Made by a program: the position numbers. From assembly GCF_016026235.1 (NCBI RefSeq), contig NZ_CP065614.1: a DNA stretch of 64,000 bases. One strand, written 5' to 3'. This DNA is from Escherichia coli. Its GTDB lineage: Bacteria; Pseudomonadota; Gammaproteobacteria; Enterobacterales; Enterobacteriaceae. Below, one piece after another: positions 28,001 through 34,000 of this stretch. Positions within the stretch are counted from its first letter, which is position 1, and each line of letters begins with the position of its first letter.

Positions 28001-31000
28001 ACTGTTTTTCCCTGTAATATTCGAACTTTTAATTCTCAAACAATATTTCATACTTCCATTATCACTTTCATGCATTATTAGTTCATTGGTTATTTCAATA
28101 ATAATTCGTATATATGGACGGATCTTTTCTGTATCATGTTTTTCAGATATCCCTTTTGTTAGAGAACACCGCATTAAGTTAATTATGGCTGGTTTTTTGG
28201 TTTATTTTTGGCTTTTTTCCTTTCTTGTTGGCTGGTATAAACCTCAATTAAAAAAAGAATATCAGATGCTTTGTTATAATAATAGTTGGTATTATGTTCT
28301 TGCTCGTTATGATTCACGGCTCGTTTTGTCTAGTTCATTTAAAGATGACAGTAACAGATTCTTAATATTTAATACAGAACAGTCGGGATTTTATGAAATC
28401 AATGATGTTTATGTCAGAAAGTAATAATCCTCTCCCACAAAGTGAATTAAATGAATATATAATGCGTTCGAAGTATATGTATTGAGCTGTCATACTGAGA
28501 AACAAACCTTAGGGCAGCACAATTAAAGCCAGAAACAACTATGCAAGAAAGTTACTAAATAAGTGCTCGGAACAGTAAAACACTCAGGGGGGACTCAGTC
28601 CAGATTATGTAATCAGATAAATTGCCAAACATCACAAATCACCAGCCGGACTGAGTGATGCCGAGCATTGCACCAATACCCCGTGATGAACGATGCCTGA
28701 TGCAGAAAGCTCCCTATAAAACAAAGAACAAAAACTACGACCGGCGATTCACCGTCATACTGATGCTGCATCGTGGTGACACTGTCTGTCACTTTCATGT
28801 TGACTGAACAACTCTGCTGCGAAGAAGGTGTACCGCCGGCGGGATTTGATTGTCCGGCGTCTAGCTTCCACTTCCCTGATGGAACTGAAAGTTGTTATGG
28901 CCGGTCAGCTTGCCCTGTCCGCAGGACATGAGGTGCTGTGACGGACAGCACCAGTAACGGAAAGTGACAATGAAAATGAATACTGCGCTGATAGTTGCAC
29001 TAATGTGTATGTGGTATGCGGTACCCGCTGCTGCAAAAGAGACTTTACTGGCTATGCCACGTAATTCAACAGAACATTGCTATGCGGAGATTAATGTGCA
29101 CGGACCATATGGGGTGTATTTCCGAGTGGTCCCGCATCCCCCCGGGGGAAAGAGCTGGGTCGAATGTAACAGTGACTACTATTACTCTGATAAACCACCG
29201 GGAGTACAGATACTCGGAACCCGTGCAGGGTGTCGGGTATACGGAATCTGCGGGACCACCTCGACACTGCATGTGGCTGGAAGAGGGGTTGTGTGTATTA
29301 AAAATATATGCAGTCCACGTGGGATGATAATTCACAGGATACGGAAACGTCCTGTAGTGGCTGTAAGCGATGAGATGTGATCTTACCCAGCAATAGTGGA
29401 CACGCGGCTAAGTGAGTAAACTCTCAGTCAGAGGTGACTCACATGACAAAAACAGTATCAACCAGCAAAAAAACACGTAAACAGCATTCGCCTGAATTTT
29501 GCAGTGAAGCCCTGAAGCTTGCTGAACGCATCGGTGTTGCTGCCGCAGCCCGTGAACTCAGCCTGTATGAATCTCAGCTCTATGCGTGGCGCAGCAAACT
29601 GCAGCAACAGATGACCTCGTCTGAGCGTGAAAGTGAACTGGCCGCTGAAAATGCCCGCCTGAAGCGGCAACTGGCGGAGCAGGCAGAGGAACTGGCTATC
29701 CTCCAAAAGGCCGCGACATACTTTGCGAAGCGCCTGAAATGAAGTATGTCTTTATTGAAAAACATCAGGCTGAGTTCAGCATCAAGGCAATGTGCCGCGT
29801 GCTCCGGGTGGCCCGCAGCGGCTGGTATACGTGGTGTCAGCGGCGGACAGGGATAAGCCCTCGTCAGCAGTTCCGTCAGCACTGCGACAGCGTTGTCCTC
29901 GCGGCGGCCTTTACCCGGTCAAAACAGCGTTACGGTGCACCACGCCTGACGGATGAACTGCGTGCTCAGGGTTACCACTTTAACGTAAAAACCGTGGCGG
30001 CAAGCCTGCGCCGTCAGGGGCTGAGGGCAAAGGCCTCCCGGAAGTTCAGCCCGGTCAGTTACCGCGCACATGGCCTGAGGTGTACTGGCAATAGCGGACA
30101 CCACCATTTGTTCTTTTTCTAAGCAGTCATCTGATAATATTTTATCCTGAAGGCTGCCGGGGAGATATTCCCCAGACGAGAGTGACGACGCTGACGATTG
30201 TAGAAAATCTCAATGTATTCCCGTATTACTGAGATGGCCTCATCCCGGCTCTTAAAACGATAGTGGCTCAGGCTTTCATTTTTCAGCGTTCCCCAGAAGC
30301 TTTCCATCGGAGCGTTGTCGTAACAGTTTGAGGTAGCCTGAGTTTAACGGACACTCCTTCCTGAAATAGAATGGCATCAGAAGGAGCCAATAATGAGCAG
30401 AAAAACCCAACGTTACTCTACGGAGTTTAAAGCCGAAGCCGTCAAAACGGTTCCTGAAAATCAGCTTTCGATCAGTGAAGGCGCTTCCCGATTATCTGTT
30501 CCTGAAGGCACTTTAGGACAATGGGTTACCGCCGCAAGAAAAGGGCTCAATACACCAGGCTCCCGCACAGTGGCTGAGCTGGAATCTGAAGTTATGCAAC
30601 TGCGTAAGGCTTTAAATGAAGCACGACTTGAGCGAGATATATTAAAAAAAGCAACAGCGTATTTTGCCCAGGAGTCGCTGAAAAATACGCGTTAGTCGAA
30701 CAATGGCGACAACAATTCCCTGTTGAAGCGATGTGTCGGGTACCTGGTGTATCCAGGAGCGGTTATTACGACCGGGTACAGCATGCCCCCTCAGACAGAA
30801 AACAAAGTGATGAGCGGCTAAAACTGGAGATTAAGGTGGCACATATCCGCACTCGCGAAACATATGGAACCCGGCGGCTCCAGACGGAGCTGGCAGATAA
30901 CGGAATTATCGTCGGTCGTGACAGACTGGCACGTCTTCGTAAGGAGCTGAGGTTGCACTGTAAGCAGAAACGCAAGTTCAGGGCGACCACAAGCTCTGAC

Positions 31001-34000
31001 CACAATCTGCCGGTTACGCCGAATCTGCTGAATCAGAACTTTACGCCCACAGCACCTAATCAGGTCTGGGTCGCAGATATAACGTATGTTGCCACCCGGG
31101 AAGGATGGCTGTATCTCGCTGGCGTCAAAGATGTTTATACGTGCGAAATTGTCGGTTACGCCATGGGAGAGCGCATAACGAAAGAGTTGACGGGTAAAGC
31201 CCTGTTTATGGCGCTCAGGAGCCAGCGCCCACCTGCCGGGCTAATCCACCACACCGATCGAGGTTCACAGTACTGCGCATACGATTACCGGGTCATACAG
31301 GAGCAGTCTGGTCTGAAAACATCAATGTCGCGTAAAGGTAACTGTTACGACAACGCTCCGATGGAAATCTTCTGGGGAACGCTGAAAAATGAAAGCCTGA
31401 GCCACTATCGTTTTAAGAGCCGGGATATTTCGTCAGCATACGGGAAAACTGATTGAGGTCGGCCTCAGTTTTGAGGCCTTTAGCCAGTTCAGCCGCAAGG
31501 GCTTTAAGCTTCTTTTCGTCCATAATTTACCTGTCTCCGTTGTTGGAGTAAACATATCAAAAACAGGCAATTACACAATTTAAATTACAGTCTCAAAACA
31601 AACCCAACGGTCAATATAGTTTACCAGCAAGCTTACTAGCAAAGTGCTAATCATTTGGTATCTTTCGTGCTATTCTCCTTTTACGTAAGTACTTAAGGGG
31701 AACGTATTTACTACTTTTAAAGAAAGCTCCGTTACTATCTGAAATGCAATGAGATAATAAACGATTACTCTCGGTTAGTATCTCATGATCATTTACAGAC
31801 TTTGCATAATCGCGAATACTATATAACAGAGTTTTAACATTACAGGATGAATAGTCTCTCTTATCAACTCCTAATAAAAGAAGGATTATGGTCAGTCGTT
31901 TTTGCTGTCTTATCATATATTATTTAGTGCAGTTCCTAACAAAAACATAACAATTTTCTACAATTGATCCTGTGACTACATAAATATCTTCAACAAAAAT
32001 ATTTATATCAGCAAAAGAGTTATTATGAATGATTATAAATCATCAGGTGTTTTTTCAACGACCAACTCCAGAGCACAACGATAAATGTCTTTTCTAACCA
32101 GGTCACATTCAGATGAAATCTTTCTGAGTAAAACATTTATTATATCCTTGTTGCTAAGGAAAGATATTGGGTTCAATACCTCATTAGCAATGGAGTTAAT
32201 GATGGAAGATTCTATTTCAAATTCAGACTGATCAATACCTATTTTATTACAGAAATTAACTCCCATATAACACATCTCCTTTACTTATTAATGAGTGTTT
32301 TCAACCTGCTCAAGCCAAACAATAAGACGTAGGACTTCATCCAAGTGTTCAAAATCAACAAAACTATATTTTGTATGTGTTTTATATAGTTTTCTAGCTA
32401 ATTTCACATCACGCACAGTTGGTATACCAACTTCATTTGCATATTTTCTGACAGCCAAGGCACACTGGTTAGTTTCAATGAGAGAAATAAAAGGTGCAGG
32501 CGCTATTTCTGGATTAAAATAAATACCAATTGCAATATGAGTCGGGTTCATTACCACTAATTTTGAATTACGTATATCAGATTTAGTCTGCTCTGAAAGA
32601 ATCTCGATATGCAACTCACGCCTTCTCGACTTTGTCTCAAAGTGTCCCTCTTGCTCTATATATTCTCTTTTTATCTCCTGTTTATCCATCATCATATCTT
32701 TCATGTATAAAATGAACTCAATCACAAAGTCAAGAATAATAACAAAAATAGAAAATGCCAAGAAAAATAATATTATATCCTTAAACAGCCCCCCCCAAAT
32801 AAGATATAAGCCATCAACACTAGAAAACACCTGAGAAAAAATTATTTTTCGGTCATTAATCCAAAAGAAATAGGTTGTTAATGCTAGAATAATAAGAAGC
32901 AGAATGCTTTTGAAAAATTCTTTTATTGTCTTTATACTAAATATTTTTTTTAACCCTTTAACAGGGTTTAATACTGAAAAATCAATCTTGATAGCTTTAG
33001 TCGCAAGAACAAACTTTGTTTGAACCAATGTTGGCAACACAGCCGAAAGAACACAGAAAAAAAGTGGGAAGCCAATTATCTTAAAAAAGACAATAACCAC
33101 TGCAAAAAAGTATTTACCCTCATTAATTTCGAAGTCATTAATTATTACATATCTGTATAAGAGCATTACATCACTTAAGGAAAAGAATGATATTATAGTA
33201 AATGTCCCTACCAGAATAATAACAACAGTCGTTAAATCCTTAAATTTAAATGACTGTCCTTTTTTTGCGGCATCCTTTAGTTTTTTAGGTGTCGGCTTTT
33301 CTGTTTTATTTGCCATAATATTTTATCTAACAAATAGATTTGTGAAAAATTTATGTTCACCGAGGAAAAATTGAACTTTAGAAAAGTAAATAGTAGAAGA
33401 ACAGATGAAAATAATAAATATTGCAAGTAAACTTTTAATAGTTAATGATACGGAAAAAGCATTCATCTGCGGAGCAAATCTCGATAATACACCAAGTAAT
33501 ACTTCTGATAGTAACAATACTATCATAACAGGACTGGCTAAAATAACAGCCTGACTTGCCAATAAAGTCAGAAATGTTAAGATATTTGAGACACGGAAAG
33601 AACATTGAGAAAATAACGGGCATATATTATAAGACAATTGTATGGATTCTAAAATAAAGACCATTCCACCACTGTATAGAAATACAACTGCAGAAAAAAG
33701 ATTGAAAAATTTTGCCAACTCAGACGTATCAACACCATTGGCAGGATCAATTGAACTACTAAGCGTTGCCCCACGCTGGTTGTCAATAATGCTACCAACA
33801 GCATGAAATATCCAAAAGGGAAGAGACAAGCAAAAAGAGAGAAGGAGGCCAACAATTATTTCCTTGAACATAAGGAAATAAACATGTTCAAAAACAGAAG
33901 AACCTATGTCTACCTTACCAGAAGTAATTAATCCTGATGCAACAAGAAAAATCACAGGTATTCTAATAGATGGAGAAATTATACCGTTATTTAAAAATGG

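Follow-up and report, generated by a model that had tools for sequence, protein, structure and literature searches.

A relic made of insertion sequence (IS) fragments lies at positions 29378-31594 of the window, the 64,000-nucleotide stretch of Escherichia coli DNA analysed here (contig NZ_CP065614.1). On the virulence plasmid of Shigella and EIEC (pINV), the relic adjoins the type III secretion island beside spa40, and comprises a truncated IS3-like element, two oppositely oriented fragments of IS600-like elements (termed pieces A and B), and one end of an IS256-family element (Table 1). RefSeq marks the relic as three IS3-family pseudogenes, and on the orthologues of the IS3-like segment and of piece B, PGAP annotates IS3-family pseudogenes missing the C-terminus. 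The relic itself is ordinary, already annotated, non-functional debris; among its modest uses, it pointed to a recurrent site of IS600 self-insertion, a hint of target preference.

Table 1. Features of the relic and the IS600 reference copy, in coordinates of the window.
Feature	Position	Strand	Remark
IS3-like element, positions 1-698	29378-30075	+	left terminal repeat, orfA and start of orfB kept
Piece A, last 253 bp (positions 1012-1264) of an IS600-like element	30076-30328	-	
OrfB C-terminus of piece A, 62 codons	30307-30119	-	
GTT, reverse complement of A-parent positions 1012-1014	30326-30328	+	left target-duplication copy expected from B insertion
Piece B, IS positions 1-1098 of a second IS600-like element	30329-31426	+	
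Predicted sigma-70-like site within left repeat of piece B	30344-30372	+	consensus match only
orfA of piece B, 100 codons, intact	30393-30695	+	ORF list
A7 slippery run in orfA of piece B	30644-30650	+	
Truncated orfB of piece B, -1 frame relative to orfA	30731-31456	+	ORF list
IS256-family element, 5' terminal 168 bp	31427-31594	-	outer end at 31594
Intact canonical IS600, 1264 bp, GTA target duplication	7462-8725	+	reference copy, outside relic

With the intact IS600 copy of the window as query, BLAST finds exactly two further matches within the window, at 30326-31426 (plus strand, 1101 nt, 92.1%, E=0) and at 30328-30075 (minus strand, 254 nt, 96.1%, E=2e-117), and repeat finding across the window returns the identical pairs. 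These two IS600-derived matches are far beyond chance; they are oppositely oriented, and a single contiguous IS600 copy is not seen at the relic. The exact limits of pieces A and B were set by base-by-base reading of their ends. A preliminary description of the locus had placed an inverted, 253-bp IS600 3' end from position 30076, and both figures are exact; it closed the arrangement at 31424, where piece B in fact ends at 31426. Piece A retains an intact right terminal repeat, whose tip at 30076 reads TGAGGTGTACTGG inward and cuts the IS3-like element at 30075/30076. Piece B, the second, 3'-truncated IS600-type copy of that description, does abut the first piece with its left end (junction 30328/30329). 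Its left terminal repeat is intact, with the tip TGAGGTAGCC at 30329 (from which the sequence reads TGAGGTAGCCTGAG), but its 3' 166 bp are gone, and with them the right repeat. The term "head-to-head" was wrong for this arrangement, as the left tip of B abuts the internal break of A at position 1012, an internal-to-head junction. The orfB of piece B exits the IS at 31426, gains a 9-codon foreign tail, and then reaches a stop. The IS256-like remnant, which is joined to piece B without microhomology (junction 31426/31427), consists of a 71-nt leader and the first 32 codons from an ATG at 31523. IS positions 1012-1098 (87 bp) occur in both A and B with one mismatch, at position 1040, and within this overlap the two pieces share three differences from canonical IS600. 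No Rfam family scored above threshold in a non-coding RNA search of 27500-33500.

Protein profiles agree with this anatomy. OrfA of piece B matches HTH_Tnp_1 (E=4e-19), and its truncated orfB matches HTH_21 and rve, spans positions 106-338 of the 369-position IS3-transposase profile, and scores 277.7 bits with NF033516 transpos_IS3. Piece A encodes positions 317-369 of the same profile, with matches to rve_2 and rve_3, and the IS3-like segment matches HTH_Tnp_1 and HTH_21. The terminal repeats have the IS3-family form (5'-TG...CA-3'), each piece keeping a single end (the right in A, the left in B), and piece B has the IS3-family orfA/orfB layout in frames 0 and -1 with a slippery run. Of the expected 3-bp target duplication, the left GTT copy alone survives. 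The tips at 30076 and 30329 each form the left side of their piece and so are in direct orientation, and neither piece has a whole orfB; with one end per piece, tips that point the same way, and no intact transposase, the relic is not an autonomous element and is immobile. On its right side, the IS256-like transposase start of the preliminary description is present, and the remnant shows homology to both the transposase gene and the end of an IS256-family element: its 168 nt are 92.9% identical to the start of an intact element on Salmonella plasmid NZ_CP039474.1, whose 399-aa product is annotated as an IS256 family transposase. The 32-residue peptide alone found no match in protein profile searches.

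Pieces A and B belong to an IS600-like lineage that is about 7% diverged from IS600. Piece B is 92.2% identical to the window IS600 over 1098 nt (86 mismatches, no gaps) and piece A is 96.0% identical over 253 nt, yet piece A is 100% and piece B 99.5% identical to variant V, a full-length element of 1264 bp on the EIEC virulence plasmid NZ_CP011417.1 (263027-264290; L002:2528-3791) that is itself 92.9% identical to IS600. All five differences between B and V fall 3' of orfA. By the ISfinder convention, isoforms share about 95% nucleotide identity. A threshold of at least 95% identity was likewise used by Hawkey 2020 (PMC7373316). Under this strict rule neither B (92.2%) nor V (92.9%) is IS600, and piece B is filed as IS600-like because its identity is below 95%. 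The earlier naming of both pieces as IS600 therefore stands as to derivation but not as to canonical identity. The same applies to the IS3 neighbour, which is truncated, as had been proposed, but is only IS3-like: it is 91.3% identical to the K-12 IS3 copies (annotated "IS3-like element IS3 family transposase"), below the 95% level, and 100% identical to the orthologous EIEC locus. The intact IS600 copy of the window is 99.2-99.9% identical to full-length IS600 copies in 120 IMG/VR loci.

The relic very probably arose by successive nested transpositions followed by one deletion, and was fixed in the ancestor of pINV. An IS3-like element would have lain next to the type III secretion island, at its spa40 end. 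An IS600-like element, the parent of A, would have inserted into this IS3-like element, inverted, at IS3 position 698, which would explain the junction at 30075/30076 between internal IS3 sequence and an intact right tip of the IS600-like type. A second copy of the same lineage, B, would then have inserted, inverted, at positions 1012-1014 of the A-parent; a left tip set against the internal break of A and preceded by GTT is the signature of such an insertion. An illegitimate deletion without microhomology would finally have joined B position 1098 to codon 32 of the IS256-family element, removing the right end of B, the 5' 1011 bp of the A-parent, the 3' portion of the IS3-like element, and the bulk of the IS256-like element. 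The anatomy, the origin from two elements, the lineage assignment, the conservation, and the existence of a complete nested pair at the same site elsewhere are shown directly; the order of events is inferred, as is the single deletion, in whose place several events are equally likely. Proof of a simple insertion would lie in the right-hand GTT copy, but this is absent from the relic, and the undeleted ancestral state of the locus was found in no plasmid, all pINV records carrying the truncated form. The whole assembled EIEC plasmid of 293,826 bp holds none of the reciprocal junctions (of the variant, the IS256-like element, or the IS3-like piece), which argues for deletion, and an inversion or translocation in its place was rejected on this ground.

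A complete nested pair at the identical site is found elsewhere. The missing right junction was predicted as the right tip followed by GTT and the reverse complement of position 1011 downward, and this construct, used as a query, matches one plasmid record, the IncI plasmid NZ_CP032524.1 of S. sonnei AR_0030. There a complete inner IS600, inverted and with GTT on both flanks, interrupts an outer canonical IS600 (positions 1012-1264 and 1-1016) that has a TGG duplication of its own. The insertion point (1012-1014) and relative orientation are the same as in the relic, and the left junction, cgtaacaGTT/TGAGGTAGCC, is identical to that of the relic. The relic keeps nothing of its pair to the right of B position 1098, but in S. 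sonnei the pair is complete with both junctions; it is canonical IS600 on another replicon, whereas the pair in the window is of the variant lineage. The S. sonnei nested pair is an analogue of the relic, not its ancestor. Among 5,426 complete E. coli genomes nothing contiguous matched the predicted junction (the top match was two separate halves), and it was absent from the GTDB representative genomes and the JGI metagenomes; the nested form is therefore rare. Breakage after IS600 position 1014 has a diagnostic product, a truncated OrfB of 204 aa, and exact look-up of this protein returned pINV contigs with IS600 1-1014/5 joined to unrelated sequence; no IS600 tip was found at the break in this look-up, and short contigs ended at that point. 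IS600 matches in E. coli O104:H4 and three plasmids that seemed to extend into the flanks were set aside as gapped or chance extensions at other targets.

Several other origins can be weighed against nested insertion. A simple internal inversion of a single IS600-like copy, with the 3' end placed inverted before the 5' end, would fit two immediately adjacent pieces of the same variant lineage, but its probability is practically nil. An inversion cannot duplicate sequence, and the 87 bp at 1012-1098 are present in both pieces, which moreover differ at position 1040; nor would an inversion set an intact terminal tip against an internal site, and a complete two-element version of the junction exists in NZ_CP032524.1. 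The overlap refutes the simple inversion, and the relic comprises two separate IS600-derived segments, as the preliminary description had maintained. It is also possible, though unlikely, that one element gave rise to both pieces, either as a circle that re-inserted into its own donor or through a replication template switch producing a partial inverted duplication. In its favour, A and B show a single mismatch across the 87 bases they have in common, and each matches variant V. In the copy-out/paste-in transposition of the IS3 family, as in IS911, the donor stays where it was and is available close by for insertion, which also favours this origin, as does the independent use of the same self-site in canonical IS600 on NZ_CP032524.1. 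Re-insertion into the donor is, however, a special case of nested insertion, and the sequence is compatible with both; a template switch would be unlikely to begin precisely at the left repeat's terminal TG, or to recreate the junction and the 3-bp duplication in another plasmid.

Considerably less probable is an origin from inverted IS600-like copies by homologous recombination or gene conversion, or the arrival of a copy of a pre-existing nested composite capable of transposition. On pINV, IS copies often recombine with one another (PMC5629016), matching duplications are lacking at 55 of the 89 distinct IS600 flank pairs surveyed, and a nested composite, having both outer ends as well as an intact transposase within, could in principle move. 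Homologous exchange between copies, however, makes no tip-to-internal junction, and the S. sonnei composite is canonical up to the junction. The variant-specific bases present 53-100 bp away in the window are missing from that composite, so that the two are not copies of each other. Insertion of B into the A-parent, followed by deletion, is thus the preferred explanation.

The A/B junction occurs in 92 plasmid records and the B/IS256 junction in 112, and the junction-bearing plasmids span S. flexneri, S. sonnei, S. dysenteriae, S. boydii, and EIEC at identities of 99.6-99.9%. With more than 100 independent complete assemblies, it is very unlikely that the junction is an assembly artefact. The relic is an ancient, invariant marker, common to the virulence plasmids of EIEC and of all four Shigella species; it is older than the divergence of these lineages and records an IS600-like lineage that was resident before the modern expansion of IS600. 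Insertions that came later at the locus differ between lineages: S. flexneri M90T gained canonical IS600 and IS1294, S. sonnei gained ISSso4, and one S. dysenteriae plasmid gained IS30. Both M90T elements, the intact IS600 (132,311-133,574), which lies within B, and IS1294 (134,268-135,956), are inserted into the relic, and a second inverted nested relic is present at 179006/179007 of the EIEC plasmid; nesting therefore recurs both at the relic locus (M90T) and on the plasmid (EIEC). It is through the IS600 and IS1294 copies beyond spa40 that M90T loses the secretion island (Pilla et al. 2017, PMC5629016; reviewed in PMC10383432), and the relic is the landing pad for these intact elements.

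IS600 seems, from its insertion sites, to favour the palindrome GGTAACAGTTAC, which is located in its own orfB. The self-target lies in an 11-bp palindrome, GTAAC-N-GTTAC, with the target duplication off-centre. IS600 has also inserted independently, with register and orientation unchanged, at the phage site GGTAACA[GTT]ACC, for which empty alleles exist; this site is unrelated to IS600, yet carries the same 12-mer as the self-target. Over 37 IS600 sites there is only a weak general target bias, and matching 3-bp duplications flank 34 of 89 surveyed IS600 copies. Judged on sequence, IS600-family transposases might prefer GGTAAC-N-GTTAC(C), at positions 1009-1020 in their own orfB, and copies might repeatedly destroy each other at a fixed site and in a fixed orientation, a proposal we put forward tentatively and consider somewhat short of probable. 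If true, IS600 would carry within itself a sink for its own insertions, which may restrain copy-number growth in the IS-laden genomes of Shigella, and the relic would be the oldest known example of self-targeting. A literature search found no description of an IS600 target preference.

In comparison with known systems, the relic belongs to the same IS cluster just past spa40 that forms part of the IS-rich flanks of the pINV entry region (PMC5629016, PMC10383432). In contrast to M90T, the window is without the intact IS600 and IS1294, and the old relic alone remains, its longest IS600 homology being 1098 bp at 92%; the deletion route of the secretion island should therefore be weaker in the window plasmid. 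Relative to IS600 proper (IS3 family; Shigella sonnei, 1264 bp, 3-bp target duplication), the pieces share a gapless length frame over 1098 and 253 aligned bases, the same terminal repeats (TGAGGTAGCC... and TGAGGTGTACTGG...), the same orfA/orfB layout with its A-rich slippery run, and the same protein domains; they differ in that PGAP names IS600 an "IS3-like element IS600 family transposase" and the variant lineage simply an "IS3 family transposase". Other IS3-family members also choose particular targets, IS1397 and ISKpn1 inserting into palindromic units and IS911 beside end-like sequences. The IS600 self-target likewise lies in a palindrome, although the general target bias of IS600 is weak over the 37 sites.

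Besides the intact canonical IS600 of the window (IS600 copy 1), a BLAST search with 7462-8725 against the window recovers two further pieces, and a repeat search concurs. The two adjoining remnants, piece A and piece B, lie between an IS3-like piece and the end of an IS256-family element, and the whole is referred to here as the relic. Their ends, read directly, extend the interval of the preliminary description (30076-31424) by 2 bp, to 31426. IS positions 1012-1098 (87 bp) are present in both pieces with one base differing between them, which bears out the earlier reading of two IS600-derived segments rather than a simple inversion. 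At the protein level, piece B has an intact OrfA and an OrfB broken off at profile position 338 of 369, and piece A encodes profile positions 317-369. Judged from sequence, the only part of the relic that could plausibly be live is the orfA of piece B, preceded by a consensus-like promoter that lies within the left repeat. No Rfam family is found in the relic region, and RefSeq/PGAP annotates the three relic pieces as IS3-family pseudogenes.

Features of the relic and its surroundings (IS positions in 1264-bp IS600 numbering)
Feature	Window coordinates	Strand	Details
IS600 copy 1	7462-8725		intact canonical IS600
ORF	28964-29380		138 codons
IS3-like piece	29378-30075		left neighbour of piece A
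Piece A	30076-30328	minus	IS positions 1012-1264; right terminal repeat intact, tip at 30076
Piece B	30329-31426	plus	IS positions 1-1098; left tip intact at 30329
IS256-family end	31427-31594		right neighbour of piece B
YmgB/AriR-like gene	32033-32275	minus	Pfam PF10798, E=5e-27
spa40	32288-33316	minus	

Pieces A and B are not canonical IS600. Against the window IS600, piece B has 86 mismatches in 1098 positions (92.2% identity) and piece A 10 in 253 (96.0% identity); in the 87-bp overlap, three departures from IS600 are common to the two pieces. Matches of at least 99% occur in nine E. coli records, listed as EIEC-type plasmids; among them is a full-length 1264-bp variant whose transposase is frameshifted and intact (NZ_CP011417.1, 263027-264290), 100% identical to piece A, 99.5% to piece B and 92.9% to canonical IS600. 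Since the EIEC plasmid holds seven full-length canonical IS600 copies and only one full-length variant along with many variant fragments, the variant appears to be an older lineage that was already resident. On the left, the neighbour likewise reaches only 91.3% identity to K-12 IS3. The assignments to IS600 and IS3 in the preliminary description stand as relatedness (IS600-like and IS3-like) but not as identity. The right neighbour is an IS256-family element reduced to its terminal 168 bp, with 92.9% identity to an intact element carried by a Salmonella plasmid.

The window comes from a Shigella/EIEC invasion plasmid (pINV). Across the 4.5 kb surrounding the relic, identity to the pINV sequences of S. 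dysenteriae, S. sonnei, S. boydii and EIEC is 99.6-99.9%, and the EIEC plasmid pCFSAN029787_01 matches the window in large collinear blocks at 99.7-99.98% identity. The relic lies directly past the spa40 end of the mxi-spa-ipa type III secretion island; the YmgB/AriR-family gene between spa40 and the IS relics is kept in all pINV records seen. On the other side, the ORF preceding the relic has a signal-peptide-like start and no Pfam hit, and corresponds to hypothetical protein WP_011114759.1 in relatives; the left repeat of the IS3-like element supplies, with its first three bases, the TGA stop of this ORF, which is therefore likely to be a gene cut short by the IS3-like insertion. The IS3-like stretch 29904-30077 recurs as a 174-bp inverted copy (98% identity) at 6989-7162, about 300 bp left of IS600 copy 1, and more IS3-like fragments lie at about 21847-22033. 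Two inverted, 100% identical 768-bp copies (9128-9895 and 26361-27128), which match IS1 in the EIEC annotation, enclose 16.5 kb including the icsA/virA region, and block order differs between the window and pCFSAN029787_01.

The relic is common to S. flexneri, S. sonnei, S. dysenteriae, S. boydii and EIEC and therefore pre-dates pINV diversification. The A|B junction occurs in 92 plasmid records and the B|IS256 junction in 112, a gap attributed to S. sonnei, where ISSso4, 15 bp inside piece B, splits the first query. In S. flexneri M90T (pWR501, NC_002698.1, 127000-135000, locus L004, compared with window 30044-30740), later insertions are a canonical IS600 within piece B near position 410 and an IS1294 within the IS3-like piece; it is through the intact IS600 and IS1294 at this place that the secretion island is reported to be deleted (PMC5629016). 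The window lacks both insertions. Breaks at positions 399-408 also occur in several IS600 copies of an IMG/VR sample, one of them (locus L054) a direct IS600-in-IS600 nest, and breaks near positions 399-410 may form a second breakpoint cluster.

At 30075/30076, internal IS3-like sequence adjoins the intact right tip of piece A. The joint at 30328/30329, previously called head-to-head, is internal-to-head: position 1012 of piece A is followed by the intact left tip of piece B, with GTT preceding the tip. Both joints are insertion signatures. At 31426/31427 internal sequence meets internal sequence without microhomology, the signature of an illegitimate deletion. Together these signatures predict a lost right junction of a nested insertion, running from the right tip through GTT into the reverse-complemented IS sequence from position 1011 downward. 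A search for it matched one record across the joint, the S. sonnei AR_0030 IncI plasmid NZ_CP032524.1 (L005:2544-5074). There, the outer element, a canonical IS600 flanked by its own TGG duplication, is broken at exactly positions 1012-1014, and the inner element is a complete inverted canonical IS600 with GTT at either side. This complete nested pair shows that the A|B junction has the form to which normal nested transposition gives rise. No reciprocal junctions turned up when the complete EIEC plasmid was scanned, and the missing parts were therefore deleted, not moved. The left junction sequence is the same in NZ_CP032524.1 and the window. Canonical sequence runs right to the junction in the S. 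sonnei elements, but the window pieces carry variant-specific bases within 53-100 bp of it; the two nests are therefore independent events.

Flanks were sampled from 120 IMG/VR loci with an IS600 left end, yielding 89 distinct full-length flank pairs, 34 of them with a 3-bp duplication. The general target bias is weak, a purine-rich stretch within the 4 nt 5' of the duplication. IS600 occupies a phage site, GGTAACA[GTT]ACC, with register and orientation matching those at the self-site cGTAACA[GTT]ACC; the empty allele of the phage site is present in two other loci, and outside IS600 copies the 11-mer occurs only at that phage site in 1.53 Mb of sequence. The phage site and the two independent nested events suggest that IS600 has a preferred palindromic target, located in its own orfB. 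The preference is not strong: the motif is free of insertions in 109 IS600 copies of these data; the IMG/VR sample contains no other breakpoints at positions 1011-1015. IS600 at the 12-mer GGTAACA[GTT]AC, in one register and orientation, is seen in three independent settings (L005:2544-5074; L034:8277-9549; L084:6621; L105:11185): the element's own orfB, once in canonical IS600 and once in the variant (window), and an unrelated phage site with empty alleles. The same IS600 position is broken a third time in L009:2599-3750 and L010:927-1700 (GCA_900159715.1 and GCA_900158495.1), where IS600 1-1014/5 is joined to 107 nt of unrelated sequence; the 34 nt that follow are identical to the right flank of IS600 copy 1 (8726-8759) and look like the end of another IS3-family element.

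Overall, the observation in the preliminary description is confirmed and its interpretation supported, with three corrections: the elements are IS600-like and IS3-like, not IS600 and IS3, and the junction is internal-to-head. The relic is an ordinary, ancient IS graveyard, annotated already, and only the possible IS600 self-target preference might be worth following up. The IS600-like variant forms another inverted nested relic at NZ_CP011417.1 178899-179594 (within L137), where positions 1157-1264 (minus) adjoin the left tip of a copy truncated at position 588; its architecture is like that of the window relic, but its insertion site is different.
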